64,000 bases of DNA from Actinomycetes bacterium (GTDB lineage Bacteria > Actinomycetota > CALGFH01), in NCBI GenBank assembly GCA_035263405.1, contig DATFRI010000095.1, forward strand, positions 27,614 through 91,613, in the 5' to 3' direction. Below are positions 9,501 to 52,013 of this stretch, piece after piece (positions within the stretch are counted from its first letter, which is position 1; each line of letters opens with the position of its first letter). A program made the position numbers and the translations under genes. Below the pieces are notes generated by a model. It did no database searches and was not told where the DNA came from. It saw nothing but the letters and a program-made list of their open reading frames with translations.

Positions 9501-10046
9501 GTGTGGCGCCACCAGGGAAGGTTCGAAGGCGTGCTGGGCCTGTTCATGGCCGGGCTCGCGCTCGGCGGGGTGCTCTCGGCGAGCGTCGCCTGGCTGCTCG
9601 GCGGGCTGCTCCAGCCGCTGCCGCGGGGCGTCCGGGTGGTGGCGCTGCTGGCCGCCGCCGTCGTCGTCGGACTGCACGAGCTGGGGGTGCTGCACCTGCG
9701 GCTGCCCTCGACCCACCGCCAGGTCCCCCGGGAGGTCTTCGACCGCGGACCGTACGCCTCGGCGCTGCAGTTCGGCGTGGAGCTGGGCACCGGGGTCAGG
9801 ACCTACCTGCCCTCGGCGGTCCCGTACGTGCTGCTGGCCGCGCTGCTGCTGCTGCAGCCCTCGCTCGCCGCCGCGCTGCTCGCGGGCGCGTCCTTCGGCG
9901 GCCTCGGCCGCGCGGCGATGGCCCTGTCGCGGACCGCCAGCGCGGACCCCGAGGACTGGGACGCGCTGCTGCGCCGCCGCCTCGCCCTGGTCCGGCCCGC
10001 CGCCGCGGCCACCGCCGCCCTCCTCTGCCTTACGCTCGCAACCTGA
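9501..10046 (+). CDS. polytopic membrane protein (about 4 TM), function unknown; last gene of the operon
   Basis: ORF-track protein has 4 hydrophobic helices. Start is ambiguous among GTG 9501, GTG 9539 and ATG 9546. Confidence 0.45.
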   Translation: MWRHQGRFEGVLGLFMAGLALGGVLSASVAWLLGGLLQPLPRGVRVVALLAAAVVVGLHELGVLHLRLPSTHRQVPREVFDRGPYASALQFGVELGTGVRTYLPSAVPYVLLAALLLLQPSLAAALLAGASFGGLGRAAMALSRTASADPEDWDALLRRRLALVRPAAAATAALLCLTLAT

Positions 10047-10281
10047 TCGCGCCGGCGACGAGCACGAGGAAGCGCCGGCACGCACGCGCTGACGCGCGGG
10101 CGGCGGTTGCTCCACGACGGGGTGAAGGTGATCCGCCGGGCCGCCTCGCGCGAATCTGTTGTGGCGGAGTCTGCGGCGACCGGCGGCCGACCGATCGGAG
10201 CGAAGTTCGCAAGGTACCTGACCGGCTACAATGCCGGTGACCGTCGGCCGTCGCCGCGACCGGCCGCCGTGGGAGCGGGGC

Positions 10282-11409
10282 ATGGACGACATCAGCGGGG
10301 ATCACAGCAGCAGGGGCCGGGGCGAGGGCCGGATCGGCGGCGAGGCCGCCGGGGACCGGGCCGCGGGGATCCCCGGCGAGGAGCACGAACGCATCCGCGA
10401 GGCGCTCGGCGCCTACGCCGCCGACGGCTGCGACGGCGACGAGCTGCGCGCGGTCGAGGCGCACCTGGCCGGCTGCCGGCCGTGCGCCGAGGAGGCCGGC
10501 CGGCTGCGCCGGGCCGCCGGCTGGCTCGCCGCCGACCAGCTCACGCCGCCGCCCGCCCGGCTGCGCGAGTCGGTCCTCGCGGCGGCGTTCGCCCGCCGCC
10601 GGCCGGCCGCACCCGCCGCCTCCGCTTCCAAGGATTCCGCTTCTGACGATTCCGCTTCCGCCGCCCCCGCACGACCGCCGACCGCGGCCGAGGTCTACGC
10701 CACCCAGGTGCGCGAGCTGGACGCCCTGCTGGCCGAGCTGAGCGCCGAGGAGTGGCAGGCGCGGGTCGTGGACGGCTGGACGGTCGAGGACCTGATGGCC
10801 CACCTCACCGCCTCCGACCGGGCACTGGCGATCGAGCTGGGGCTGCGCGGCACCGCGGGCGCGGTCGGCGACCTGCCGCCGGCGTCGGCCCGGACCGCCT
10901 GGCGGGAGCAGGCGCAGGCGGTCCTGGAGCACGTCACCGGCCGCGGCCCCGACGCGCTCGACCGCCCCGTCCACGTCGCCGACCCGCGGCACCCCCGCCA
11001 GCCGGTCCGGGTCGCGCTCGCCCAGCGCGCGTTCGAGGCCTGGATCCACACCGCCGACATCCGCTCGGCGCTCGGCCGGCCGGCGCAACCGCCCCCCGCC
11101 GGCATGGTCCGCGGCATCGTCGACCTGGGCGTGCGGCTGCTGCCGTCCGCGCTGCACCTGGCCGGCGCCGAACACCCCGGCCGCACCGCCCAGCTCGTGC
11201 TCGACGGCGACGAGGGTGGTCGCTGGACGGTCCCGCTTGGCCCCGGGACGGCGCCGGCCGCCCCGGCGGTGACCGTCGCCGCGGACGCGGTGGAGTTCTG
11301 CTTCCTGATGGGCAACCGCCGCCCGGCCGCCGTGGCGCGCACCGTCGGCGGGGACCCCGCGCTCGCCGACGACCTGCTGCGCGTCACCGCGACGCTCGGG
11401 TGCGACTGA
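10282..11409 (+). CDS. ZAS-type zinc-finger (HxxxCxxC) protein fused to a mycothiol-dependent maleylpyruvate isomerase-like (MDMPI_N/DinB_2) domain; putative anti-sigma factor
   Basis: Motif AVEAHLAGCRPCAEEAG (H-X3-C-X2-C) near the N-terminus; WTVEDLMAHLTASDRA is typical of the TIGR03083 family. Preferred start ATG 10282 (RBS GGGAGCGGGG); the track start at 10231 overlaps a TACAAT -10-like hexamer. Confidence 0.7.
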   Translation: MDDISGDHSSRGRGEGRIGGEAAGDRAAGIPGEEHERIREALGAYAADGCDGDELRAVEAHLAGCRPCAEEAGRLRRAAGWLAADQLTPPPARLRESVLAAAFARRRPAAPAASASKDSASDDSASAAPARPPTAAEVYATQVRELDALLAELSAEEWQARVVDGWTVEDLMAHLTASDRALAIELGLRGTAGAVGDLPPASARTAWREQAQAVLEHVTGRGPDALDRPVHVADPRHPRQPVRVALAQRAFEAWIHTADIRSALGRPAQPPPAGMVRGIVDLGVRLLPSALHLAGAEHPGRTAQLVLDGDEGGRWTVPLGPGTAPAAPAVTVAADAVEFCFLMGNRRPAAVARTVGGDPALADDLLRVTATLGCD

Positions 11410-11492
11410 AGGTGGCCGCGATGCCCTGCTTCCGGGCGGACACCTCTGGTCAGCAGGCATCGCGGACACCCTCACCGAGGCCGCGCAGGTGA
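11407..11492 (+). promoter_or_regulatory. conserved leader element copy 1: SD AAGGTG + ATG 11421 enclosed in a 10-bp helix (11416-11425 with 11456-11465); 23-codon uORF ending in GTGA overlap with the sigma ORF
   Basis: About 85% nt identity over ~70 nt with 32476-32545. CCGCGATGCC is the exact reverse complement of GGCATCGCGG 30 nt downstream. uORF is MPCFRADTSGQQASRTPSPRPRR with stop TGA 11490-11492. Confidence 0.5.
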
Positions 11493-12238
11493 CCCGGAGA
11501 CCGCCCGAGCCGGAGGCCCGCGTGCCGTGGCGCCGCCGGCGCGCCCGCCGGCCCGCACCCGCCGGGCCGCGGCTCACGGGACGGGTGACGCGGGACGCCG
11601 CGGATGATTCGATGCACCTCCCGACCGTCGCGGACCGGTCCATCGAGCAAGGAGGCGTCACGGTGGCGCAGCCGCCGGCATCCTGGCCACAGGACGAGCA
11701 CACGCTGCATCAGCGCCTCCTCGCCGGCGAGGAGGCGGCGCTGGCCGCGCTCTACGACCGGTTCGCGTCGCTGGTCCACGGGCTGGCCCTCCGGGTCACC
11801 CACGACCGGGCGGCCGCCGAGGACCTCACCCAGGACGTGTTCGTGTGGATCTGGGAGCACCCCGAGGCGTTCGACCCGGCGCGCGGCCGCCTGCGCGCGT
11901 GGATCGCGATGCTCACCCACCGCCGGGCGGTCGACTGGGTCCGCCACGGCGAGGTCCGCCGCCGCTACGCGATGGTCGAGGCCGAGCCGCCGCCGCCCGT
12001 GCCGGGCGTGGAGGAGGAGGCGGTTGCCGCCGCCACCGCCAAGTGCGTGCGCGCCGCGCTCGAGGACCTCCCCGAGGCGCAACAGGCCGTGATCCGGCTC
12101 ACCTACTTCGACGGCCTGACCTGCCGCGCGGCCGCCGAGGCGCTGGGCATCCCCGAGGGCACCGCCAAGTCCCGGCTCCGGCTCGGGCTGCGCCGGCTCG
12201 CCGACCAGCTCGAGGCCGCGGGGATCCTGGACGCGTAG
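11489..12238 (+). CDS. ECF sigma-70 family sigma factor (possible alternative start ATG 11612)
   Basis: Region 2 (DLTQDVFVWIWEHPEAFDP...AWIAMLTHRRAVDWVR) and region 4 (LPEAQQAVIRLTYFDGLTCRAAAEALGIPEGTAKSRLRLGLRRL). The long form starts at GTG 11489 with an Arg-rich 41-aa extension. Confidence 0.75.
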   Translation: MTRRPPEPEARVPWRRRRARRPAPAGPRLTGRVTRDAADDSMHLPTVADRSIEQGGVTVAQPPASWPQDEHTLHQRLLAGEEAALAALYDRFASLVHGLALRVTHDRAAAEDLTQDVFVWIWEHPEAFDPARGRLRAWIAMLTHRRAVDWVRHGEVRRRYAMVEAEPPPPVPGVEEEAVAAATAKCVRAALEDLPEAQQAVIRLTYFDGLTCRAAAEALGIPEGTAKSRLRLGLRRLADQLEAAGILDA

Positions 12239-22994: not shown

Positions 22995-25900
22995 TCAGTC
23001 GCGGGCCAGCTCGGTGATCTGACGCTGCAGCGGGAGCATGCCGAGGCGCTCGGCGGTCGCGCCCGCCATCGTGAGCAGCTCCAGCGCTCGCTCGCGCTGG
23101 CCTGAGAGGCCCCCGGTCAGCAGCATGCGCGCGTACTCGACCTGCGTCCGGGCGACCAAGGGCGGCGCGGCGAGGCGGAGGTTGCGATCGAGCGCCCCTT
23201 GGAAGTGCTCGTCGGCCTCCTTCCACTCGCCGAGCACGGACTCGAGCTGGCCGAGGAAGTGCGCGGCGGAGCCCAGGCAGCCGAACCCGAAGGTGACCAC
23301 CACGTCGCGGTCGGCGTGCGGCAGCAGCAGCGCGCGCAGCTCCTCGGCCCGATCGGCGTCGCGCAGGAGGGCGCACAGCTCGGCGAGGGTCGCGACCGAG
23401 CCCAGCCAGGGCGCGCCGCCGCCGAGCCGGTCGAAACCGGCCGCCGCCAGCTCCTGGAAGATCTCCCAGCCCTCGTCCAGGCGCCCGGACAGCGCCGCGA
23501 GCAGCGCGAACCCTGCCCGCCAGGCGGGCAGGTGCGGGAAGTCGCTCACGAACGACAGCAGCGAGCGCTCGACGTCCTCCTGCGTGCCCGGGCCTTCCTC
23601 GCCGGGCAGCCGGCCCTGCTCCCGGCAGCGCAGCAGGAGCTGGACGGCGACGCCGTGCTGCACGTACCCGGGATCGCGGCTCTCCAGCCGGTTGCCGTAC
23701 GCCAGCGCCCGCAGCGTGGCCGCCTCCGCGCGCTCGAAGCGGCCCTCGGCCATCGCCAGGGTGGCCTGGTGGATCGCGGCCCAGTACAGGTGCCACGGCA
23801 GCCGCAGCCCCTCGGCGAGCTGGATGCAGGCGCGCAGGTCGGTGCGGGCCGCGGCCAGGTCTCCCAGCTCCATGGCGGCGACCAGCCGACCCCGCCGCCC
23901 CTCGAGGACCTGCTCCACCTCCCCGGCCCGCTCGGCGAGCGCGACCAGCTCGTCGCACAGCTCGCGGCGCTGCGCGGCGTTGTCCGGCTCCCAGGTCGCG
24001 TTGAACCGCGACACCAGGGCGCCGCAGAGCGCCCGGTCGTCGCCCAGCTCGCGCGCGATCGCGACCGCCTGGCCGCTGAGCGACTCACGGCGGGCGCGCG
24101 CCTGCGGCTGCTGCCCTGACGCCGACCAGACCAGCACGCGCGCCAGGCTCGCCAGCAGCCGCGACCGCAGCGCCGGGTCCCCGTCGCCGACCATCGCCAG
24201 CGCCTCGTCCAGCAGCAGGGCGCTGCGGTCCGGCCCGCCGGGAGCGGTCAGGCGGGAGTGGGCGTTGCCGAGACCGAGCGCCGCGCGGGCGAGCAGCCCG
24301 GCGTCGTCGATCCGCTTGGCCAGCGCGGCGGCCTCCAGCAGGCGCGCGGACGCGCGCGCCTGCTCCCCGGCCAGGTCGAGCGCCGCGCCGAGGTCCAGCA
24401 GCAGCCGGCAGCGGGCGTCGGGCGCGAGGTGGCCGGCCCCGGTGTCCCGCGCCAGCTCCAGCAGCCGCGCCGCCTCCTCCCAGGCGAGCATCGCCCGAGC
24501 CCGCCTGCCGGCGAGCAGCGCGCACTCGTGCGCCCGCCGCGTGGCCTCCTCGCCACCGGCCTGCGACCACAGGCGGGCGAGCTGCTCGGCGTGGTCGCCG
24601 AGCGCCCCGCGGTGCGCGCGCTCGATCGCGGCGGCGGCGCGACCGTGCAGCTCCGCCCGGCGGTCGTCGGGCAGCCCGCCGTCGAGGGCTTCGCGCACCA
24701 GCGGGTGGCTGAAGCGCAGCGTCCCGGGGCGATCCGGGTCGGGCTCGAGCAGCCGGGCGCCGGCGGCGGTGCGGATCTGCTCGTCCAGGTCCGCGTCGGG
24801 CAGGTCGGCGCCGCTGCGGAGCACCTCCAGCTCGGACTCGACGCCGAGCACGGCCGCGAGTGCGAGCAGCTCGCGGCAGGGCTCCGGGAGCCGTGCGGCG
24901 CGCACGCGCACCGCGTCGCGGACCAGCGGCGCGACCGCCGCCGGCCCGTCCACGACCGGCAGCCCGCCGCCCGCGAGCACCCTGGCCAGCTCGACCGTGA
25001 GCAGGGGGTTGCCGCGCCCCCGCCTCGCGATGTCCGAGACCTCGCCGGCCTCCACAGGCGCCACCGCCCGGGGGGCCCTGGCCAGCTCGGCCTCGATCAG
25101 CTCGGCGGCCTCGCGGGTCTCCAGGACGGGGAGCGGCAGGTCGTCGGTCCCGGGCAGCCGCCGCAGGCGCCGCAGGGTCGCCGGCCAGCCGGCGGTGCCG
25201 TCGGCATGGTCCTGGTACACGGCGAGCAGCAGCAGGCGGCTGCCGTGGAGGCGCCGCGCGACGTGCTCCAGCAGCCGCAGCGAGGGCGCGTCCGCCTCGT
25301 CGACGTCGTCGAGGACCAGCACGACCAGGCGGTCCGCGGCGGCCTCGCGCAGCGCCGCGGTCACCGTCTCGAACTGCTGCTCCCGGCCGGCGGGGGAGGC
25401 GGCGTCGCCGTCCTCCTCCCCGGCCGCGGCGGCGTCGCGCCAGCGGTCGAGCAGTGCGCGCGCGCCCGCGTCCTCCGGCGCCCCGGCCGCGGCCAGGATC
25501 ACGCCGAGCACCTGGGACCACGGCCGGAAGGCGCGCGGTCCCGCGGCCCGGAGAGGGGAGGCTGCCGCCACCAGCGCCCCGGCGGCGGCAGCCTCGGCGG
25601 CGAAGCGCGCGGCCAGGGTGCTCCTGCCGCTCCCCGGGTCCCCGTGCAGCAGCACCAGCAGGCCCCGCCGGGTGCGCGCGACCTGGAGGGCCGCTCGCAG
25701 GCGGCCGAGCGCGGGGCCGCGCCCGACGAACCCGCGCGGCGGCCGCCGGGCGCTCCCGGAGCGGTCGCCGCGGCCGACACGCCGCTCGAGCGCCTCCCGC
25801 GCCGGCCCGCCGTCCAGCGCCGGCTCCCCGCGCAGCTCGCGCAGCTCCTGGTAGGCGGCGAGCGCGTCGTCCCGCCGTCCCGCCTGGTACAACGCGCGCA

Positions 25901-26537
25901 CCTCCAGCTCGCGCAGCGACGCCCGCCCCGGGTGCTCGCGCACGGCGAGCCGCACGCGCTCGACCAGCTCCCCGGACCGCCCGAGCTCCAGCGCCGCCTG
26001 GAGGGATCCCTCCAGGGCGATCAGGCGCAGTGACCCGAACCACCGGCCCGCGGCGGCCACGAACCCGTACGCATCGGTCAGGTCGGCCAGCGGCTGATCG
26101 CGCCAGAGCGCCAGCGCCTGGTCGAACGCGTCGGCCGCGCGCTCGGGCGCGCCCTGGGCGAGCGCGCCCCGGCCCTGCTCGACCAGGCGCTCGAAGCGCG
26201 CAGCGTCGACCGACCCTGGGTCGACCTCCAGCCGGTACGCCCGGCCGCCCGGCCCGGCCACCAGCGCCGGCGGCGCGCCCGCCTCGTCGCGCAGGTCCAG
26301 TGCTGAGCGCAGGCTCGAGACGTCGCGCTCCAGGGTCGCGGCGGCGTCCTCGGGCGGGGCGCCGTTCCAGCACCGGGCGACGAGCGAGTCGCGCGGCACG
26401 AACCGGTTGGCGTCCAGCAGCAGCTGCGCCAGGAGCGCGCGCCGGCGCGCGCTGCCGACCTCCAGGACCTCGCCGCCGTGGCGAACCTCCAGCCGGCCGA
26501 GGACCCGGAACTCCAGTGCCGCCCGAGCGCCGGTCAT
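22995..26537 (-). CDS. AfsR/SARP-family transcriptional regulator (OmpR-type winged helix + BTAD + NB-ARC ATPase + TPR)
   Basis: LEFRVLGRLEVRH... winged-helix DNA-binding and BTAD N-terminus; P-loop LLVLLHGDPGSGRSTL; long C-terminal TPR-like helical region. Start ATG 26537 (M19 of the track ORF). Confidence 0.8.
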   Translation of the reverse strand: MTGARAALEFRVLGRLEVRHGGEVLEVGSARRRALLAQLLLDANRFVPRDSLVARCWNGAPPEDAAATLERDVSSLRSALDLRDEAGAPPALVAGPGGRAYRLEVDPGSVDAARFERLVEQGRGALAQGAPERAADAFDQALALWRDQPLADLTDAYGFVAAAGRWFGSLRLIALEGSLQAALELGRSGELVERVRLAVREHPGRASLRELEVRALYQAGRRDDALAAYQELRELRGEPALDGGPAREALERRVGRGDRSGSARRPPRGFVGRGPALGRLRAALQVARTRRGLLVLLHGDPGSGRSTLAARFAAEAAAAGALVAAASPLRAAGPRAFRPWSQVLGVILAAAGAPEDAGARALLDRWRDAAAAGEEDGDAASPAGREQQFETVTAALREAAADRLVVLVLDDVDEADAPSLRLLEHVARRLHGSRLLLLAVYQDHADGTAGWPATLRRLRRLPGTDDLPLPVLETREAAELIEAELARAPRAVAPVEAGEVSDIARRGRGNPLLTVELARVLAGGGLPVVDGPAAVAPLVRDAVRVRAARLPEPCRELLALAAVLGVESELEVLRSGADLPDADLDEQIRTAAGARLLEPDPDRPGTLRFSHPLVREALDGGLPDDRRAELHGRAAAAIERAHRGALGDHAEQLARLWSQAGGEEATRRAHECALLAGRRARAMLAWEEAARLLELARDTGAGHLAPDARCRLLLDLGAALDLAGEQARASARLLEAAALAKRIDDAGLLARAALGLGNAHSRLTAPGGPDRSALLLDEALAMVGDGDPALRSRLLASLARVLVWSASGQQPQARARRESLSGQAVAIARELGDDRALCGALVSRFNATWEPDNAAQRRELCDELVALAERAGEVEQVLEGRRGRLVAAMELGDLAAARTDLRACIQLAEGLRLPWHLYWAAIHQATLAMAEGRFERAEAATLRALAYGNRLESRDPGYVQHGVAVQLLLRCREQGRLPGEEGPGTQEDVERSLLSFVSDFPHLPAWRAGFALLAALSGRLDEGWEIFQELAAAGFDRLGGGAPWLGSVATLAELCALLRDADRAEELRALLLPHADRDVVVTFGFGCLGSAAHFLGQLESVLGEWKEADEHFQGALDRNLRLAAPPLVARTQVEYARMLLTGGLSGQRERALELLTMAGATAERLGMLPLQRQITELARD

Positions 26538-26667
26538 CGCGTCAAAACCCTGGCATATCAGGGCATCGGCGACAATGCTCTCCCGGCACAAAGACGGCCG
26601 GGCGGGCAGACGGTCGCGCCGGTGCCGCCGGTGGCCGGGGAGGACGCCACCGGCGGCCGGAGCGCGC

Positions 26668-27687: not shown

Positions 27688-30288
27688 CTACCGCCTCGGC
27701 GCATCGTGGCTCCCGTCAGGCGGCAGATCGTCGTCGTCGGCCCAGATCCGGTCCATCGCGTCGGTCGCGGCGGTCCGCCCGCGGGTGAGGCCGCGGCGGT
27801 AGGTCGACAGCAGGTCGCGGACCTCGGCGGGCGATCTGGTCGAGTCGCCCAGCTCCGGCTCCTCGAGGTGTCCCTTGGGCGCCGCCAGGCCGTGGGTCAG
27901 CCCGGATGCGATGCCCTTGGCGGGCACGCGCCTGGGCAGCCCGACGCTGGTGGTCGGCGGCTCCTCGTCGTCGTCGCTGTAGTCGCTGTAAGCGGTCGGG
28001 TCCGGCGGTCGGGGCGCCTCGGCCGGTTCCGCCCTGGGCGCCGGTTTGGGCGCCGCGGGGGCCCGCAGCGGCGGCGCCGGCGCCATGGTCGACGCCCGGT
28101 CGGCTGCCTGCTCGGCCTCCCACTGCGCCGCCTCGGCGCTCGGACCCGGGTGGAACCAGTCGGACCGGGTGGACTCGAAGATGGGCAGGCGGGCCCGCTC
28201 GGCGCCGCCGCCGCCCGCGCTCTCGGGCGCGGTCAGCGCGGGCTGCACCTGCTGGACCTGCGCGGCGCGGCTCGTCGACGGCCAGTTCGGGTAGCCGCCC
28301 CCGCCGCCCTCGACGCCCGGGGCCCTGCCGTCCACCTGCTTGACCAGCAGCTTCTCGGGGATGAGGACGAGCGCGGTGACCCCGCCGTACCACGAGTGGC
28401 GCAGCTGCACCTTGATGCCGTGGCGGATGGCGAGGCGGCCGACCACGTTGAAGCCGAGCGTCTTGGACAGCGCGAAGTCCATCACCGGCGGGTTGGCCAG
28501 GCGCTCGTTGACCTCGAACAGCTCGGCGTCGGTCATGCCGATGCCCTTGTCCTCGATCTCGACGACGTGGCCGGCGATGATCGGCAGCCCGGTGATCCGC
28601 ACCTTGGTCTCCGGCGGCGAGAACGAGGTGGCGTTCTCGATCAGCTCGGCGAGCAGGTGCATGACGTCCCCGGCCACCTGGCCGCTGACGCCGACGTCCG
28701 GGGTCGGGAACAGCTCGACGCGGGTGTAGTCCTCGACCTCGCCGATGGCCGCGCGCACGGCGTCGTTGAGCGGCACCGGCGCCTGCCAGCGGCGCACCGC
28801 CTCGCTGCCGGACAGCACGATCAGGTTCTCCGCGTTGCGCCGCATGCGGGTCGCGAGGTGGTCGAGCTGGTAGAGGTCCTCGAGCGCGTCCGGGTCGGTC
28901 TCGCCGCGCTCCAGCTCGTCGATCTTCTCCAGCTGCCGCTCGGTGAGGACCTGGTTGCGGCGGGCGAGGTTCAGGAACATGTCGCCGATGCTCTTGCGCA
29001 GCCCGGCCTGCTCGCCCGCGATCGTGACCGCGACGCGGTGGACCGAGTTGAACGCCTCGGCGACCTGGCCGATCTCGTCCTTGGAGCGGATCCCGATGGT
29101 GCGCACCTCGCGCTGCAGGTCCACCGGTTCGCCCTCGTGCAGCCGCTCGACCAGGCCGGGCAGCCGCCGGTGGGCGACGTCGTTGGCGACGTCACGCAGC
29201 CGCACCAGCGGGTTGACCATCACCCTGGCGGCCAGCAGCGACAGCCCGACGGTGCCCCACAGGACCGCCGTCAGCACGACGCTGAGCCAGAACGCCCGCC
29301 GGTCGGCGCGCGCCTGCAGCGCGGTGCTGCTGGCGGCGACGTCCTCGGCGAGCCTGGTCTCGACCTGCCGCATGCGCTCGACCTTGCCGGTCATGACCGT
29401 CCACCACGAGCTCGGGCTGATCCCGAGCGTGCCGGCGGTCGCGCGCGTGCGGGCGATGTCCCGCAGCTGCTCGGAGCGCTCGACGTCCGGCCCGACGACG
29501 CTGGCGTCGGCCAGCTCCCGCTCCCGCGGGCTGGCGGCGGCCTGGAACCGCGCGGACCAGAAGTCCTGCGCGGACATCATGGAGACGAAGCGGTCGTAGT
29601 CGCCCTCGCCGAAGCGACCCAGGGAGAAAACGCGGTTCATGAACGCGCGCTCCTGGTCGGCGCTCTCCTTGGCGCGGGAGAACGCGTCCAGGGTGGCGAC
29701 GACGCCGAGCAGCCGCTCGTTGTCGCTGCCGCTCGCGATCGCCGCGTTGATGTCCAGCAGCGACCCGATCGTCTCGGTGTAGCCGTCCAGCGCCTGCGTC
29801 AGCACCGCGTCGATCCGTTGCTCGCCCGACGGGGCGTTCTCGCCCCCCTTGGGCTGAGACTGACCTGGAGCGTTGAGCGAACGGTTGTCGATCGTTTGGC
29901 GTTGGGCTGCGAACGTCCCGAGACGCTCCAAACCCGCGTCCAGCCGGTCCTGCAGGCGCTGGTCGAAGTCGGCGACGGGCAGCCCGCTCGCGGCGCGCCG
30001 CACGCCCGCGACCCGCGAGTCGACCACCCGCCGCTGCTCGATCAGCTCGGCCTCGCCGGTCCGGTACTGCGAGCCGACGTACCCGTTGGACAGCCCGCGC
30101 TCCAGCTGGACGGCGTGGACCAGCGGGATGAGCTTGGCGGCGAAGCCGGCCAGCTCGTTGACGCGGCTGGCCCGGGCGCTCTCGGAGATGTTCACCCCGA
30201 TGCCGACGGCGCTGAGGACGGTCAGGATCAGCAGCGGCCCGGTCAGGATGGTGATGAGCTTCGTACGGATCTGCAGGTTCTGGAACAT
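27688..30288 (-). CDS. cvnA: conservon sensor histidine-kinase-like protein (CvnA-like: nitrate/nitrite-sensing-type N-terminal domain, HAMP, HATPase)
   Basis: N-terminal TM, HAMP-like segment and HATPase_c motifs (DKGIGMTDAELFE, GFNVVGRLAIRHG); 866 aa with a long disordered C-terminus. ATG 30288 with AAGGG RBS. Confidence 0.8.
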   Translation of the reverse strand: MFQNLQIRTKLITILTGPLLILTVLSAVGIGVNISESARASRVNELAGFAAKLIPLVHAVQLERGLSNGYVGSQYRTGEAELIEQRRVVDSRVAGVRRAASGLPVADFDQRLQDRLDAGLERLGTFAAQRQTIDNRSLNAPGQSQPKGGENAPSGEQRIDAVLTQALDGYTETIGSLLDINAAIASGSDNERLLGVVATLDAFSRAKESADQERAFMNRVFSLGRFGEGDYDRFVSMMSAQDFWSARFQAAASPRERELADASVVGPDVERSEQLRDIARTRATAGTLGISPSSWWTVMTGKVERMRQVETRLAEDVAASSTALQARADRRAFWLSVVLTAVLWGTVGLSLLAARVMVNPLVRLRDVANDVAHRRLPGLVERLHEGEPVDLQREVRTIGIRSKDEIGQVAEAFNSVHRVAVTIAGEQAGLRKSIGDMFLNLARRNQVLTERQLEKIDELERGETDPDALEDLYQLDHLATRMRRNAENLIVLSGSEAVRRWQAPVPLNDAVRAAIGEVEDYTRVELFPTPDVGVSGQVAGDVMHLLAELIENATSFSPPETKVRITGLPIIAGHVVEIEDKGIGMTDAELFEVNERLANPPVMDFALSKTLGFNVVGRLAIRHGIKVQLRHSWYGGVTALVLIPEKLLVKQVDGRAPGVEGGGGGYPNWPSTSRAAQVQQVQPALTAPESAGGGGAERARLPIFESTRSDWFHPGPSAEAAQWEAEQAADRASTMAPAPPLRAPAAPKPAPRAEPAEAPRPPDPTAYSDYSDDDEEPPTTSVGLPRRVPAKGIASGLTHGLAAPKGHLEEPELGDSTRSPAEVRDLLSTYRRGLTRGRTAATDAMDRIWADDDDLPPDGSHDAPRR

Positions 30289-31968: not shown

Positions 31969-32475
31969 CGGCGCTCCTACGTCCTTTCGCGACAGATGTC
32001 TCGGGCGGAGGCGGGGGTGCGCAACTCGTCATGGCAGGACACGGGGCAAGGCGGTCGACCCGGTACGGACCGGGCAAGCCTCGAGCGCTGCGGAAGCAGC
32101 CAGGGCATGCTCACGCACTCCGGGGCAGGGAGGTCGACGGATGTTCAAATCCGGCAGGGAACCCTAACTAAGCAATCCAGTCTTGTCGAACCGGCAAACA
32201 TGGACGCGCTTTCGCATTCGTCGCGCGGGCGAGCTGAGACGCACCTCGCGATCCGGGCGAACATCCCGCTGACCAGGGCGCTTGAATCCCCGATCCGGTT
32301 CGGCTAGCGTAGCGCGCTGTTCGTGCCCATCTAAGGGTGTTTGTCTGAAATATCTGACTTTTCGGAAGCCGTCCGCACGTCCCGACCCCCGGCGTGACGA
32401 CAGCCGGCGCCAGCCTCGGCGAAGCGCCGCAGCATCCGTCCCCGACGACGCACGGCAACCCCCGCCACGATCGAG

Positions 32476-32639
32476 TGAAGGTGTCCGCTATGCCCTTCTT
32501 CAGGGCGTCCACCTGTGGTCAGAAGGCATCGCGGACAGCTTCAGCGGGCCCCGCAGCGAGTCCTGCTCGGTCACCCCTGCGCACCGGTCCATTTCCTGTT
32601 CTTGCGCCCGGCCCCGACCACCCGGCGAGAGGAAGGTAG
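32476..32639 (+). promoter_or_regulatory. conserved leader element copy 2: SD AAGGTG + ATG 32490 inside the helix 32484-32494 / 32525-32535; 49-codon uORF ending TAG 32637-32639, 8 nt before the aminotransferase GTG
   Basis: About 85% identical over ~70 nt to 11407-11475. uORF MPFFRASTCGQKASRTAS... Its 3' end contains the SD (GGAAGGTAGGGAGAG) of the downstream gene. Confidence 0.5.
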
Positions 32640-32646
32640 GGAGAGC

Positions 32647-33861
32647 GTGGCAACCTCGCACGATCAGGCGGTACGAGCTCGTTCCCCCGGTCAGGACCCC
32701 GACGACCCGTACCCACCCGTCGCCACGCTCGCCCAGCGCATCCGGCCCGCCACGCACCTCGACTTCCAGGGGTACAGCACGCCCCGCGACGGCGCGCTGT
32801 CGACGGCCCCGGCGGACGCGCCCCTGCGCCGCCTGGACCTCAACGAGGGCCCGGCCGCCCCGCCGGAGCTGGTCGAGGAGTGGCTCGAGCGGCTCAAGGT
32901 CCGCGCGCTGCACGTCTACCCCGACGAGCACGCCTCGACGCTGCGGGCGGCCGTCGCCGGGCACGTCGGCGTCGAGCCCGACCAGGTCGCGGTCGGCGCC
33001 GGCAGCGTGCAGCTCTACCAGGCCGTCCCGCTCGCCTTCGCCGGCCCGGGCCGAACGGCGCTGGTGTTCACGCCCACCTACGGCGCGTACTTCCCCACCG
33101 TACGCAGCACCGGGACGCGGATCCTCGCCCGGCCGCTCGGCCGCAGCGCCAGGCGCTTCGACGCGATGCCGTGGCTGGCCGCCGAGACCGGTGCCGACCT
33201 GGTGATCTGCTGCTCGCCCAACAACCCCACGGGCGAGGTCATCCCCAACGACGTGATCGCCGACCTCTGTGCGGCGACCGACGGCATCGTCATGGTGGAC
33301 GAGGCCTACGGCGAGTTCGGCTCCTCCAACGCGACCGCGCTGCTGCCCCGCTTCCCCAACCTGATCGTGACCGGCAGCACCTCCAAGGCGTTCAGCCTGG
33401 CGTTCCTGCGGGCGGGCTGGGCGACCGCCAGGGCCGAGATCACCAGCGTCCTGGCGAAGGTCCAGACCCCCTGGCACATCTCCGGTCCCGCCGAGCTGGC
33501 CGCGACGCTCGCGCTGACCACCTACCGCGACGAGATCGCGGCGAACGTCAAGGACGTGATGCGCGAGCGCGACCGCCTGGCCGTCGAGCTGCCGCGGATC
33601 CACGGCGTCGAGGAGGTCCTGCCGTCCGAGGGCAACTTCGTCGCCTTCCGGACCTCCCGTCCCGCGACCGACACGTGGGCGGAGCTGCTCGCCATGGGGA
33701 TCCAGATCCGCAACCTCAGCCACATCATGGAGGATCCCAACTACCTGCGCGTCTCGGTGACCAACATCGCCGCGGACACCGACGCGTTCATGCGGGCGCT
33801 CGCGGAGGTCCTGGGCGGCGGGGCGCTGGGGGGTCCGCGGTCCCCACGGCCCTCCGGCTGA
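32647..33861 (+). CDS. class-I/II PLP-dependent aminotransferase (histidinol-phosphate aminotransferase family-like)
   Basis: GTG 32647 with GGGAGAG RBS. CSPNNPTG motif, plus typical RALHVYPD...AVGAGSVQLYQ...TGSTSKAF(S) regions including the putative PLP-lysine region; 404 aa. Confidence 0.75.
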   Translation: MATSHDQAVRARSPGQDPDDPYPPVATLAQRIRPATHLDFQGYSTPRDGALSTAPADAPLRRLDLNEGPAAPPELVEEWLERLKVRALHVYPDEHASTLRAAVAGHVGVEPDQVAVGAGSVQLYQAVPLAFAGPGRTALVFTPTYGAYFPTVRSTGTRILARPLGRSARRFDAMPWLAAETGADLVICCSPNNPTGEVIPNDVIADLCAATDGIVMVDEAYGEFGSSNATALLPRFPNLIVTGSTSKAFSLAFLRAGWATARAEITSVLAKVQTPWHISGPAELAATLALTTYRDEIAANVKDVMRERDRLAVELPRIHGVEEVLPSEGNFVAFRTSRPATDTWAELLAMGIQIRNLSHIMEDPNYLRVSVTNIAADTDAFMRALAEVLGGGALGGPRSPRPSG

Positions 33862-34855: not shown

Positions 34856-35882
34856 TGGGGGTCGCATCACCTTTCGTGGACGATGGCTGGCCGGAGCGGA
34901 CAGGTCTCGTGGGCGGACAGGTCTCGTAGCGGACGCTTGCAAGCTGCAAGCCTCGCGCAAGCAACCCGATCGGGCAACCCGAGCACGCGCCAGCCTCTCC
35001 GCAGGACACGGCGCCCTGTCGTGCGATCCCTCTTTTCGGAATTGACTCGTGGATCCTGATGAGGAAAGTTGAGCGGGCGGGGACCCCCATCCCCGCGGTC
35101 AGGTCCGATCACAATGTGGAGCTGTCTGTCGTGGGTGCTCGGCGGGTTCTCCAGCAAGTCCGTGGGCCGGCGAGGCTGACGCACGGAGACCGTCTCCGCT
35201 CCAGGCCTTCGTTCCCCCGGGTTTCGCCCCGGGTGTCCACCCCCACCCCGGCTGAAGCACGGAATTCGCCGATCCGGTGCGACCGGGTCCCAGCCACCTC
35301 CGAACAGGGTGAACCAGCCGCGAGGAGGTGATTCTCCGATGGCAATCTCCAGTGCCATTTCGTCTGCCCGATCACAGGGCCGGGCCAGGATTTCCGGTGC
35401 GTGGTCTCGACGAGCGACTTCACGGGTGGCCTGGACGACCGGGCCGGGCCGGCGGAGACCGAAAACGCCTGGGGAGGCAGTGTCAGCCCAGAGGGGACCC
35501 CTGGCAGGTGCCAGCGAAGGTGGGACGCGGCGGCTGGACCGCGGTCCCACCCCGAGACCGGTGGACGGCTCGGCCGCTTCCCCCGTGGGCCGGCAGAAGG
35601 AGCTCGGCCGGATCCCGTACCGGACGTTCTGAGGCCTGGCCCGCCCACGTCGTGCGCGCAACGCGCGGTGGAGTGCCGGATCCGCGGAATCCGGGGACTT
35701 CCTTTGTACAGAATGTTGAGGGCGGTCGGGACGCCGGATCGCGTACGGTACTTGGCGTGTGCTGCGCGGCACGTCGGTCGGCCGCTGGCGACGGTGTCCG
35801 TGCTGCCACCTGACTCGAGGTGAGCGGCTCCATCGGTGGGTGTCGCCGCACCTCCGGTGGGAAGGAGAGGCGCTGCGTCGTC

Positions 35883-43671: not shown

Positions 43672-45378
43672 TCAGCCGTACCCGCCGCCGCCGAGATCGG
43701 TCGCGACGGCATCGACGCTGAAGACGCTCCCGCTCCCGCCCCCGCCGTCGCTGACGGCGTCGGTGACGGCGTCGCCGCCGTCACCGACGGTCGCATCCGG
43801 CTCGCCGGGGTCGAGGGAGAAGGCGTCGGGCTCGAGAGACGCGCCGAGGAGGGCGCCGCCGGCACGCTCGGCGCCGGGCCGGCCGGCGTCGAGGACGGTG
43901 GCGTCGACCTCGCCGGCCGCGAGGCCGGCCGGGTCCTCCGGCGCCGTCCAGGCGTCCTCTGACACCAGGAACGCGTTGCCGGCGAAGGGGTCGGTGCCGG
44001 CCGTGACCGCGGGGCCGTGGCCGAGCGGGTCCTGCCGGTCGGCAAGCGGGGCGAGGGGGTCGGGGGCTTCGGCGGCGATGGTCGGGTCGTCGGCGGGCTC
44101 GACCGAGGACGAACGGCCGCGGCGTGAGCTGCCGCGCCCCTTCGACCCCGACCCGGTCTCCTTGGACGGCGCCGGAGCCTCGGCCGGGGCGACGGGTCCC
44201 TCGGCCGGGATCGGGGGAAGCTCGAAGAGCAGCTCCCCGCTGGGGCCGAACGCCTTACCGCCTTTGAACTGGCCGTCCTTCGGGTCCACCTTCCCGCCGA
44301 TGACGAAGCTGCCTGGCTGGATGACCCTGCCGTTTCCCATCGGCACGGGCTGGGTGAACTTCCACAGGCCACCGGGGTGGTCGGGGTAGTAGACGATGCC
44401 CTGCGCGTCCGGCTGCGGCTCCCGCTGCTCGTCGGGCGAGAGCGACAGCTCGGGGACGTACCGGCCCTGCGCGTCGTACACCCTGCCGTGGAGGACGACC
44501 CCCTTCTCGCCCTTCTCGCTCCCGATCCTGAACGGCTCGTTCGCCGGGATGATCCTCGTGCCGATGCGTTCCTCGGTCGGGAACGAGAAGGTGCCTGTCT
44601 CGGGGTCCTCGACGGCTCTGCGCATGACCTCCACAGCGGCCGCTCTCCGCTCCTGCTCGACCCGCCGCTCGGCCTGGTACCGCCCCAGCAGTTCCTGCTG
44701 CGCCGGCGTAGGCTCGGCCAGCTTGGGCCTGGCCTGCTGCGTCGCCTCCAGCGGCGGTGTCGGGGCCTTCGGGGGCTGCTTGCCGACGGCCTGGGCCAAC
44801 CGGGTGAAGGGCGCGGGCCAAGGCGTGGCGCCGGCCGCGTCGGACGTCGGCGCGGCGTCGGTCACCGTGCCGCCGTCGTCACCGCCGCCGCTGGTCGCGG
44901 GCCGCTGCCGGGACGCCACCTCCCTGATCCGTCTGGGGAGCGGGAAACGGGGATCCGGAGCGACCCCCGCCGGAGGCTCCTCACCAGACCGCTCCGGGTC
45001 CGCACCCAGGCTGGTGGCGCGGGCGGCCTCGAAGCCGCCGGCCGGGGCCTGGCCCGGCGGCGGAAGGCCGTCGAGGCCGCGCAGCAGGTGCTTCGCCTGG
45101 ACCTGGAGACGCTGATAGGCCGGGTCTGAGAGGCCGGGCGGCGGGAGCGACGAGGTGGCACTTCCACCGCCCGGCCGGGCCTCGGGCAGGGTGCCGGCGC
45201 GGGCCCGCTCGCCCGGGACGACTCCCTTCGCGAGCGCGGCCCCCTGGTAGCAGAGCGCCACCAGCAGCACCAGGCTGGCCATCAGTGCGACGGCGGTCAG
45301 GACGCGCAGCCACGCGCCCCTGGCGGTTGACGCGGTGCCGCGCGATCCTGAGCCGCCGTCGCACCGAGGAGCTGCCAT
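43672..45378 (-). CDS. signal-anchored Pro/Ala/Gly-rich protein with C-terminal GGGGYG tail (paralog of 56364-57932)
   Basis: ATG 45378 with AAGGAG RBS. TM/signal segment LRVLTAVALMASLVLLVALCY. N-terminal region is homologous to the 56364 gene (QRLQVQAKHLLRGLDGLPPP versus QQLQDRMAEARDLLVRLGGSPPP). Confidence 0.45.
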   Translation of the reverse strand: MAAPRCDGGSGSRGTASTARGAWLRVLTAVALMASLVLLVALCYQGAALAKGVVPGERARAGTLPEARPGGGSATSSLPPPGLSDPAYQRLQVQAKHLLRGLDGLPPPGQAPAGGFEAARATSLGADPERSGEEPPAGVAPDPRFPLPRRIREVASRQRPATSGGGDDGGTVTDAAPTSDAAGATPWPAPFTRLAQAVGKQPPKAPTPPLEATQQARPKLAEPTPAQQELLGRYQAERRVEQERRAAAVEVMRRAVEDPETGTFSFPTEERIGTRIIPANEPFRIGSEKGEKGVVLHGRVYDAQGRYVPELSLSPDEQREPQPDAQGIVYYPDHPGGLWKFTQPVPMGNGRVIQPGSFVIGGKVDPKDGQFKGGKAFGPSGELLFELPPIPAEGPVAPAEAPAPSKETGSGSKGRGSSRRGRSSSVEPADDPTIAAEAPDPLAPLADRQDPLGHGPAVTAGTDPFAGNAFLVSEDAWTAPEDPAGLAAGEVDATVLDAGRPGAERAGGALLGASLEPDAFSLDPGEPDATVGDGGDAVTDAVSDGGGGSGSVFSVDAVATDLGGGGYG

Positions 45379-45918
45379 CGCCTGCTCCTTGCGGAAGGCT
45401 GGAGGAGACCCGTTCCACCACAGCCTCCACCGAGGCGATTGCAGCAAGGACTCTGGGGCGTGTCGATGCGATAAAGGAGCAGCGACATTTCCACAGGAAT
45501 CCCGGACCAATGGCCCTGAGTCCCCCTTCAGTCCCCCTTCCGGATCGGGGAAACCGTAATACAGGCGAGGGTATGAGCGTCAATTGTAGCCCGTCATAAA
45601 GGCCGGGGTGGCCGCCTTCCGGCCTGCCGGGCACAGCCGGCCGTGGTCCAGGCGTCCGACCTGCCGTTCTCGGTGGATCGCAGGGTGCCGGGCCGCACCG
45701 GGAGCCACCCCGCGGCCGGCGCCACGACGCGGTCCGGCGCCGTACATTTGGGGAACGTTTCGGCAACGATTTGCACAGGCGGCGGGACCGGGAGCGCATG
45801 CGCCCGCGAGCCGCATGCCCGGCAGGTATTTGCACGCCGGCGCGGCCGGCGAGGACGCCGGGGCGGGCGGCGGCATGCGCGCCGCGCGGCCACGTGCCCG
45901 ACCGGACCGCAGCGCCGG

Positions 45919-49806: not shown

Positions 49807-50675
49807 CCGGCAGTCTCCAGGTTCGCGGTCGGGTGCTGGGCAGGCGCTCCGCCCGGGTTCGGGGAGGGGGCGGGGCGCGGGGAGGGCAGGGGGGTGAGCC
49901 TGGCCTGGCCGGGGGTCAGCTCGACCAGGTGGCGGTCCGGCAGCTCGGTCCAGTCGCCCACGTCGTCGAGCGGCTCGGAGGCGGCGAGCGCGGTGCCGTC
50001 CCGCCGGGTGGTGAACAGGGTCGCCGCGCGACGGGTGCCGCCCTGCCGCGAGCCGATCGCCGCGCGCACGCCGACGATGCGGGCGCCGTCGCAGGCCAGC
50101 ATGGTCAGCGTGGCGGCCCGCCCGGCGGCGACGCAGCGCCGCTCGACCTCGGACACCGTGGCGGCGACCGCTCCGCCGAGGCCGACCCCGGGATCCTCGC
50201 GGCGCCGGCGCGCGACCGTGAGCGCGAGCACCACCGAGTCGGTCAGCAGGCCGATCCGGCCGAGCAGGTCGTCGGGCAGCTCGGCCAGCAGCTCCCGGCC
50301 GACCGGGCCGGGGAACCCGTCGATCCGGCCGTTGTGCGCGACCGCCACGCCGTCGTTCAGGAAGGGCGCGGCCGCGGACGGGCCGTACGGCAGGCCGGGC
50401 GTGCCCGAGCGGACCGCGGCGAGCTGGGCCGTCGCCCGCAGCCTCGGCGCGAGGTGCGGCAGGTTGGGGTCCGACCACGGCGGCAGGTCGCTGGCGTAGC
50501 GCAGCGGCTCGGACTCCCCCGGCGGCCACCACACCACCCCGGTGCCGTCCACGTTGACGCTGCCCTGGTGCTGCATCCTCGGCCGGTAGGCCTGCTCGTA
50601 CAGCGCGTGCGGCAGGTCGCGCAGGAGCAGCGACAGCGGCGCCTCGGCCCCGGTCCGGGCGGCCATCCGGCACAT
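49803..50675 (-). CDS. egtC: class-II glutamine amidotransferase (ergothioneine biosynthesis EgtC)
   Basis: N-terminal Met-Cys (MCRMAART), the nucleophile position of class-II GATases; 290 aa; ATGA overlap with egtB. Confidence 0.8.
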   Translation of the reverse strand: MCRMAARTGAEAPLSLLLRDLPHALYEQAYRPRMQHQGSVNVDGTGVVWWPPGESEPLRYASDLPPWSDPNLPHLAPRLRATAQLAAVRSGTPGLPYGPSAAAPFLNDGVAVAHNGRIDGFPGPVGRELLAELPDDLLGRIGLLTDSVVLALTVARRRREDPGVGLGGAVAATVSEVERRCVAAGRAATLTMLACDGARIVGVRAAIGSRQGGTRRAATLFTTRRDGTALAASEPLDDVGDWTELPDRHLVELTPGQARLTPLPSPRPAPSPNPGGAPAQHPTANLETAG

Positions 50676-52012
50676 CAGCGGTCCCAGGCCAGCCGCAGGC
50701 CGGCGAAGATCTGGCGGCGCTGCGGGTAGTCCCAGTTGCGGAAGGTGGCGCGCGCCACCCAGCGCGAGGTCGCCCACGACGCGCCGCGCAGCACGCGGTG
50801 GTCGTCGCCGAAGAAGACCTCGCTGTACTCGGGGTAGGGGAAGCTCGAGTAGCCCGGGTAGCCGCGGAACGGCGAGGAGGTCCACTCGTACACGTCGCCG
50901 AGGAGCTGCTCCACGCCGTAGGCGGACGCGCCCGCGGGGTAGCTGCCGACCGGCGCCGGCCCCCAGCCGCTGTGGTCCAGGTTGGCGCGGGCGGGGCTGG
51001 GCGGCACGTCGCCCCACGGGTAGGGGCGGCTGCGCCCGGCGGCCGGGTCCCAGGCGCACGCCTTCTCCCACTCGGCCTCGGTCGGCAGCCGGCCGCCCGC
51101 CCAGCGGGCGAACGCCTCCGCCTCGTGCCAGCAGACGTGCTGCACCGGCTCGCGCGGGTCCAGCGGCAGCAGGTGGTCGAAGCGGCGCACCAGCCAGCCG
51201 CCCGCGCCGTCGGGCGTCCAACCCTGCGGGACGCGCTCGCCGCTCTCCTCGCGCCACGCCCAGCCCTGCGGGCTCCACAGCTCCGGGCGGTCGTAGCCGC
51301 CCGCGGCCACGAACTCCGCCCAGCGCCGGACGGTGACCGGGAAGCGGTCGATCGCGAACGCGCGCAGCTCGACCCGGTGGGCGGGGCGCTCGTTGTCGTA
51401 GGCCGCGGTGCGGTCGTCGGTGCCGAGCCGGAACGGCCCGGCGGGGATCGTGACCCGCTCGGTGTCGTCGACCGGCCGCGGGCTCGGCACCCGCCGGCCG
51501 GCGGCGGGCGGGTAGGGGTCCGCGGCGGCGCGCAGGTCCAGCGCCTGCAGCATCGTCTCCTGATGCTGGGCCTCGTGCTGGACGATCATGCGGTACACGT
51601 AGCCGCCGGCGACCAGCGGGCGGTCGGGGTCGAACGCCACCCGGCGGAGCACGCCGAGCGCGTCGGCGCGCACGTCGGCGAGGTACGCCAGCGCCTCGCG
51701 GCGGGGCAGGATCGGCAGGTCCGCGCGCGTCCAGCGCGGGTTCTCGAACGGGTTGTAGACGCGGTCCAGGTCCGGGTTGTCGGCCGGGCGGCCGTCCAGC
51801 TCGCGCAGCAGCCACAGCTCCTCGAAGTTGGCGACGTGACCCATGTCCCAGACCAGGGGGCTCATGATGCGGTCGAACTGCTGGTGGACGGCGTCGTCGC
51901 CGAGCGGGTCGGTGAGACCGAGCAGACGCCGGCGGACGGTGGCCAGCTCCCGCTCGAGGCGGTCGCGCAGCTGGTGGGTGGGCTCGGTCAGGTGGGCGGG
52001 GTCCATGCGCAC
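50675..52012 (-). CDS. egtB: hercynine/gamma-glutamylcysteine sulfoxide synthase (EgtB; DinB_2 + FGE-sulfatase domains)
   Basis: 445 aa; DinB-like N-terminal domain (HQQFDRIMSPLVWDMGHV), C-terminal FGE-type domain (RVLRGASWAT, GLRLA). Confidence 0.85.
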   Translation of the reverse strand: MRMDPAHLTEPTHQLRDRLERELATVRRRLLGLTDPLGDDAVHQQFDRIMSPLVWDMGHVANFEELWLLRELDGRPADNPDLDRVYNPFENPRWTRADLPILPRREALAYLADVRADALGVLRRVAFDPDRPLVAGGYVYRMIVQHEAQHQETMLQALDLRAAADPYPPAAGRRVPSPRPVDDTERVTIPAGPFRLGTDDRTAAYDNERPAHRVELRAFAIDRFPVTVRRWAEFVAAGGYDRPELWSPQGWAWREESGERVPQGWTPDGAGGWLVRRFDHLLPLDPREPVQHVCWHEAEAFARWAGGRLPTEAEWEKACAWDPAAGRSRPYPWGDVPPSPARANLDHSGWGPAPVGSYPAGASAYGVEQLLGDVYEWTSSPFRGYPGYSSFPYPEYSEVFFGDDHRVLRGASWATSRWVARATFRNWDYPQRRQIFAGLRLAWDR

Positions 52013-52013
52013 C

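Follow-up and report, generated by a model that had tools for sequence, protein, structure and literature searches.

The two near-identical segments that precede an ECF sigma factor gene and an aminotransferase gene in the window (the whole stretch of DNA analyzed here, 64,000 nucleotides in length) are probably copies of a small non-autonomous mobile element of the MITE type, about 67 bp long and flanked by a 2-bp target duplication. The element family is previously uncatalogued, and its kind, that of the small palindromic mobile repeats, is already known. It is carried by an uncultured lineage of about 75% GC that is labelled "Actinomycetes bacterium"; the G+C content of the window is likewise about 75%. 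In the preliminary description of this DNA, the segments were taken either for a riboregulator with a translationally coupled upstream ORF (uORF) or for a novel dispersed repeat. The second of these proposals agrees with the distribution of the element, which is found in 13 copies on 8 contigs, whereas the first does not survive comparison with related loci. The relevant features of the window are as follows.

10231 to 11409, forward strand: gene for a zf-HC2 and MDMPI_N/DinB_2 protein (anti-sigma-like), the upstream neighbor of copy 1
11405 to 11406 (left) and 11474 to 11475 (right): putative 2-bp target duplication AC of copy 1, for which the reconstruction of the empty site is ambiguous
11407 to 11473, forward strand: copy 1 of the element (T-GAAGG...CCCTC, 67 nt), 84.9 bits with the covariance model
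11407 to 11425, forward strand: 5′ terminal inverted repeat of copy 1, which pairs with 11456 to 11474 and holds the SD-like GAAGGTG and an ATG
11663 to 12238, forward strand: ECF sigma factor gene, from its probable true start at GTG 11663, which is preceded by AAGGAGG
32474 to 32475 (left) and 32543 to 32544 (right): 2-bp target duplication AG of copy 2; the empty site in the orthologous locus L127 reads cgAGcg
32476 to 32542, forward strand: copy 2 of the element (67 nt), 88.8 bits with the covariance model
32647 to 33861, forward strand: gene for a class I/II aminotransferase, the downstream neighbor of copy 2
35790 to 35863, reverse strand: possible decayed third copy (E=0.013, 17.8 bits), a weak match that could be due to chance

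The near identity of the two segments, first put at about 85%, is recovered as 58 identical bases of 69 (84%) between 11407–11475 and 32476–32544. A 48-nt degenerate pattern has two sites in the window, which are copies 1 and 2, where none is expected (100 shuffles), and an HMM search of the window returns these copies as its sole matches. When a covariance model is run on the window with its filters off, the two copies stand well apart from the next unrelated match, which scores 26 bits. The remaining matches of this model are generic GC hairpins, such as the one at 43755–43792, a GC-rich, perfect-stem structure within coding sequence (the 3′ part of the gene at 43672–45510 on the reverse strand) that yields the score of 26 bits and is unrelated to the element family. 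The possible third copy, which retains about 64% identity to the consensus and has lost the hairpin, resides immediately 5′ to the SD and ATG (35883) of an ABC-transporter ATPase gene.

The helix of the preliminary description is present in both copies: in copy 1 it is exact, with CCGCGATGCC at 11416–11425 being the reverse complement of 11456–11465, and in copy 2 it contains one mismatch. This 10-bp helix is the core of a longer hairpin that extends across the whole element and has a predicted energy of −42.6 kcal/mol in copy 1 (z = −4.0) and −36.3 kcal/mol in copy 2 (z = −3.9). The opposite strands of both copies fold about equally well. Because the hairpin spans the entire element and the reverse strands fold in a similar manner, the element is a near-palindrome. 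Since the mismatches of copy 1 are not those of copy 2, a perfect inverted repeat, TGAAGGTGTCCGCGATGCC / GGCATCGCGGACACCTTCA, was predicted for their ancestor. The only palindrome internal to the arm TGAAGGTGTCCGCGATGCC is CGCG.

The same pairing accounts for an unusual pattern of substitutions. As had been described, ORFs of 23 and 49 codons open at the ATG enclosed in copies 1 and 2, respectively, and none of the substitutions that distinguish their first 16 codons is at a third position; the number of these substitutions is six, not seven. Third positions are spared because the hairpin pairs co-vary. For example, TGC>TTC in codon 3 (G>T) and CAG>AAG in codon 12 (C>A) are the two sides of one base pair, such that CUGCU/AGCAG in copy 1 becomes CUUCU/AGAAG in copy 2. 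The pattern, which had served as a hint of conservation at the RNA or DNA level, is explained by hairpin pairing, and the peptides encoded by the two ORFs are unrelated past codon 16.

Further copies, which the preliminary description had proposed to count together with their associated genes, number 11 and reside on seven metagenome contigs; the 13 copies known in total come from at least four samples. A metagenome scan with the pattern TGGTCAGNAGGCATCGCGG yields 17 loci, six of which carry full-length relatives; the contigs concerned are all GC-rich and belong to JGI Ga0126377. An HMM locates a second, more diverged copy in L004, and the orthologous locus L129 contains four copies in 20.7 kb. 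With two to three copies in the 64-kb window, this sampling suggests that their density is patchy. These numbers, together with the transposition-like mode of insertion described below, are at odds with the case in which only two copies exist and arose by local duplication.

When the 13 copies are aligned, each is 76–97% identical to the consensus. The latter displays 19-bp terminal inverted repeats, TGAAGGTGTCCGCGATGCC...GGCATCGCGGACACCTTCA, as predicted from copies 1 and 2, which bound a conserved center of about 30 nt; the ends of the element can be written as the inverted motif GAAGGTGTCCGYGAYGCC. The element is 67–69 bp in length, and its ORFs are incidental and lack conservation, as evidenced by the replacement of the ATG by ACG or GCG in five of the 13 copies. 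The consensus hairpin has a predicted energy of −49.6 kcal/mol. Over 28 pairs and 13 copies, pairing is maintained in 91% of cells, compared with 37–50% in slid controls, and both-sided changes occur at four pairs: CG>UA in three similar L129 copies, UA>CG in one of the L004 copies (L004b), and UA/GC alternatives in the inner stem.

Relatives with 74–85% EgtB identity provided about 57 kb of non-redundant DNA, in which no copy is present, nor is there one in L149 (aminotransferase identity of 75%), where the upstream region is not alignable. Copy 1 and the consensus have no match in a plasmid collection, and the 12 matches in viral contigs are all chance occurrences inside coding sequence. A scan of a genome collection with the permissive pattern GGCRTCGCGGACASCYTCA likewise gives only chance matches among the at least 108 matches listed. 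The Rfam check suggested earlier turns up no relevant family in the whole window at the gathering score; at E≤10, copy 1 has no match and copy 2 matches microRNA and sRNA families at chance level (E of at least 0.12). In the literature, whose coverage here is incomplete, no actinobacterial repeat of such kind was found.

The genomic settings of the 11 copies outside the window are varied.

L015: in the spacer that separates rplU from an rne-like gene
L016: flanked by the CIRCE operator and the SD within the groEL 5′ UTR, in antisense to groEL
L014: in reverse orientation, its end 24 nt short of an ATG
L005: in the gap where a BCCP-type gene and an enoyl-CoA hydratase gene converge with their 3′ ends
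L006: begins at a BioY-like gene's stop codon
L004a and L004b: reversed relative to an enoyl-CoA hydratase operon
L129a to L129d: in four different intergenic spacers

All 13 copies are intergenic and lie beside unrelated genes. Where the flanking genes are co-directional, three copies are in the sense and six in the antisense orientation. In L016 (870–1010), the CIRCE element reads TTAGCACTC-N9-GAGTGCTAG, and the copy situated between it and the SD, in reverse orientation, provides a natural test case for an effect on a heat-shock leader. In L005 (6936–6995), four tandem 15-nt units (GTCAGGCGTCGGGCA) follow immediately on the 3′ end of the copy, the first of them beginning in the duplicated AGT flank.

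Comparison of filled and empty sites provides the most direct view of insertion. L127, which contains the closest ortholog of the aminotransferase (82% amino acid identity), shares the permease/aminotransferase synteny and the conserved promoter block of the window and lacks the element. In silico removal of 69 nt from the window (copy 2 and one AG) gives ...gatcgAGcggg..., matching ...gaacgAGcgcg... in L127. L129, which carries the MDMPI-sigma ortholog (75% amino acid identity), retains the gene order of the window as far as the CoxE and molybdopterin dehydrogenase genes. It is empty at the position of copy 1 and has a copy elsewhere in the same MDMPI-sigma spacer, 66 nt past the stop codon and in the opposite orientation. 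In silico removal of 70 nt from this locus (the element and one TT) gives ggatgaTTcgatgcac, which is identical to the window. Excision of copy 1 itself leaves no clean ancestral site, as it deprives the upstream ORF of its stop codon; either this site has changed further or the insertion was not simple. Clean excision of 69–70 nt thus restores the junction of the other genome in two of three cases. On this comparative basis, the MDMPI-sigma spacer has received two independent insertions of one element family in two relatives, as fits mobile DNA and not a conserved regulator.

The flanks of the copies follow the pattern 5′-A N [Y-GAAGG...CCTTC] A N-3′, and the flanking dinucleotide is the same on both sides in nine of 13 copies (AC in four, AG in two, AT in two, and AA in one). 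A duplication of 2 bp is preferred over a 3-bp "ANT" duplication, a candidate that was rejected, because the third flanking base matches in only five of the 13 copies, which is about chance level. The target duplication is the weakest of the MITE features of this element, in that it comprises only 2 bp, has a first base that is nearly always A, and is not displayed by four of the 13 copies.

The aminotransferase locus also contains a truly conserved non-coding feature. Window positions 32283–32370 align with L127 3283–3370, forming a promoter-proximal block that is conserved along with the 82%-identical aminotransferase ortholog. The block contains TTGAAT-N17-TAGCGT (TAGGTT in place of the latter hexamer in L127), followed by about 45 nearly invariant nucleotides that include GCGCTGTTCGTGCCCATCT.A.GG..TTTGTCTGAA. 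For the permease/aminotransferase pair, it could serve as an operator or as a leader RNA.

Prokaryotic MITEs are defined as elements of 50–800 bp with terminal inverted repeats of at least 10–15 bp and target duplications of 2–10 bp (PMC11602168). The element described here falls within each of these bounds, being 67–69 bp long with incidental ORFs only, possessing 19-bp consensus repeats, and showing a 2-bp duplication that two filled/empty comparisons fit exactly, the third (that of copy 1) being ambiguous. Its dispersal and its insertion polymorphism, as seen in its absence from L127 and its displacement in L129, are also characteristic. Similar features are present in bacterial MITEs such as Correia/NEMIS of Neisseria, RUP of Streptococcus pneumoniae, and MITEAba12, which are small, non-coding elements with terminal inverted repeats (PMC11602168, PMC3184786), a short target duplication, many dispersed and mostly intergenic copies, and insertion polymorphism between relatives; here too, co-transcription would yield a long RNA hairpin. 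Unlike these named examples, the present element, at about 67 bp, approaches the minimum of the size range and consists almost wholly of hairpin, its duplication is a 2-bp "AN" rather than TA, and it resides in an uncultured actinomycete lineage of about 75% GC in which no cognate IS has been identified.

In the mechanism favored here, a transposase encoded elsewhere in the genome would move the element in trans, recognizing its inverted repeats and making a 2-bp staggered cut at the target. Insertions inside genes would be removed by selection, or else would be avoided through target preference. Given the complementarity of the arms, any transcript crossing a copy, in either orientation, would contain a very stable stem-loop (−36 to −50 kcal/mol). 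The short ORFs of the two window copies, together with their ATG and SD-like GAAGGTG, would have arisen incidentally from the inverted repeat and the sequence adjoining it. If the ECF sigma factor and aminotransferase genes are affected at all, this would be a by-product of placing a hairpin in a 5′ UTR or an intercistronic region, through processing, stability, or a roadblock, with no dedicated sensor. As for the source of the transposase, neither a transposase nor an autonomous element whose inverted repeats match was found in the available loci, and about 190 kb of DNA from the clade contains neither solo inverted repeats nor inverted repeats paired over long range. Insertion sequences of the IS5 family are candidate parents, in that the terminal GAAGGTG is similar to the beginning of the IS5 inverted repeat (GGAAGGTG...), a likeness that may be coincidental. 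Some IS5 subgroups make 2-3-bp duplications, according to ISfinder descriptions. No IS with the ends of this element was retrieved.

Selection for a hairpin, whether in single-stranded DNA or in RNA, would account for the compensatory changes of the arms at least as well as would recognition of double-stranded repeats by a DDE transposase. In an alternative reading, the single-stranded DNA hairpin is the substrate of a single-copy tyrosine transposase (HUH/Y1, RAYT-type) and the element persists vertically, rather than being the derivative of a decayed IS. Such an origin is unlikely, yet it has several points in its favor. The REPINs and REP sequences that are associated with RAYT in Pseudomonas and enterobacteria resemble the element in their length of about 70 nt, in their architecture (inverted conserved ends around a spacer, with compensatory changes that preserve a hairpin of the whole unit), and in their extragenic location (PMC3116915), which is strictly observed by the copies described here. 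Copies within one genome are fairly diverged (84–85% between copies 1 and 2), which suggests long persistence, and no parent IS is seen in the available loci. However, the ends of the element are not short palindromes: inspection of the sequence reveals no REP palindrome in either arm. The duplicated dinucleotide and the precise insertions of 69–70 nt are also unlike the products of IS200/IS605-type single-strand transposition. Nor does a RAYT gene occur in the loci at hand, which represent a small part of any genome.

A related and somewhat more doubtful proposal is that the element is a hairpin-dependent, vertically persisting replicator of the REPIN kind, served by a single-copy domesticated transposase, with some of its copies serving, after recruitment, as hairpins in the leader RNAs of stress genes (the ECF sigma factor gene and groEL). 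A system of this nature is not known to have been described in Actinomycetes.

Improbable too is the reading that the host has recruited the structure as an RNA or DNA hairpin that acts wherever it is inserted, for example as a stabilizer of mRNA 3′ ends, a factor-dependent terminator, or an RNase III site, with its mobile origin being secondary. Such recruitment is compatible with a MITE origin as a later step. Its appeal lies in the great stability of the hairpin on both strands and in the positions of several copies: that of L005 lies between convergent genes, those of groEL and rplU are tolerated in 5′ UTRs, and two copies begin exactly at an upstream stop codon. In one of these cases, the first three bases of copy 1 (TGA, 11407–11409) are the stop codon of the zf-HC2 and MDMPI_N/DinB_2 gene. 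The L129 ortholog of this protein ends at the same residue (...LGCD*); copy 1 is situated exactly at the stop, and the protein is not truncated. In the other case, in L006, the terminal TGA of the copy forms the upstream stop codon at 1751–1753. These points are offset by the fact that positions differ between relatives and by the lack of the T-run that follows the GC-rich stem in an intrinsic terminator: none is present after any of the 13 copies, and a scan in and beside the window copies reveals neither an intrinsic terminator nor a sigma-70 consensus. Under the preferred MITE reading, the hairpin could nonetheless influence processing or stability at copy 1 (intercistronic), at copy 2 (probable 5′ UTR), and at the groEL and rplU copies. 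By bringing such a stem, of about −40 kcal/mol, into a 5′ UTR, an insertion may alter the expression of a neighboring gene.

The anti-sigma-like zf-HC2/MDMPI_N gene is located upstream, not downstream, of the ECF sigma factor gene, an order that is kept in L129. The ORF at 9501–10046, which precedes it, has no Pfam match.

The riboregulator, in which a short uORF, translationally coupled to the gene that follows it, would have its SD and AUG sequestered by the helix, is very improbable and is already contradicted by the comparative sequence data. What suggested it is the resemblance of both window copies to SD-sequestering RNA thermometers and riboswitch leaders, with an SD-like GAAGGTG and an ATG inside a stable stem and short ORFs leading toward the downstream genes. 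The element differs from such leaders in several respects. Neither its orientation nor its position is fixed, given that at least six copies are reversed relative to genes and one lies between convergent genes. It is not conserved at orthologous sites, being absent from the aminotransferase leader of L127 and occupying another position in reverse orientation at the sigma locus of L129. Neither the uORF start codon, which is lost in five of 13 copies, nor the peptide, which in the window diverges beyond codon 16, is conserved, and the element belongs to no Rfam family.

Moreover, the genes that were proposed to be regulated start well downstream of the hairpin. The ECF sigma factor gene most likely begins at GTG 11663 rather than at 11489, since Sigma70_r2 begins only at residue 88 of the long ORF from GTG 11489, the base composition shifts between the two positions (GC2 of 0.69 and GC3 of 0.88 at 11489–11662, which is less coding-like, versus 0.51 and 0.97 downstream), and both AAGGAGG and GTG 11663 are kept in L129. 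The translation of 11489–11662 is a run of Arg, Pro, and Ala. This start is 188 nt downstream of copy 1, and the GTGA overlap of the uORF with the sigma factor ORF at 11489, from which coupling had been proposed, is probably an artefact of an open frame in GC-rich DNA. Copy 2 resides within a 680-nt divergent region between an amino-acid permease gene (reverse strand) and the aminotransferase gene, whose start, GTG 32647, is about 105 nt past the copy and has its own SD (GGAAGG/GGGAGAG). The start codons of both downstream genes are situated about 100–190 nt beyond the hairpin, and the real SDs and start codons of these genes are not sequestered.

Two further candidates were rejected: a tRNA- or att-site-bounded island with direct repeats 21 kb apart, for which there are no tRNAs and the repeats recur on many unrelated contigs, and coding in another frame, for which the downstream genes are in different frames and the third-position composition is not coding-like.

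For annotation, the present analysis removes a false lead, the riboregulator with its coupled uORF, and corrects the start of the ECF sigma factor gene. For biology, it documents a small mobile repeat, not catalogued before, from a lineage of soil actinomycetes that is very GC-rich and has been poorly sampled, and such elements can serve as strain markers.

Several other regions of the window merit mention. The ergothioneine genes egtA (GCS2) and egtB (DinB_2 and FGE-sulfatase) are located at 50675–53450 on the reverse strand; relatives display the order egtA-egtB-(egtC)-egtD, followed by DUF2277 and Ser/Thr kinase genes, as in the window. A large regulator of the BTAD/AAA_16 type (SARP/LuxR-like) is encoded at 22995–26591, also on the reverse strand. 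On the same strand, 27688–30288 is occupied by a NIT-HAMP-histidine-kinase gene of the conservon (cvnA) type, and in the orthologous locus L128 cvnA is followed by Roadblock, DUF742, and ATP_bind_1 genes.
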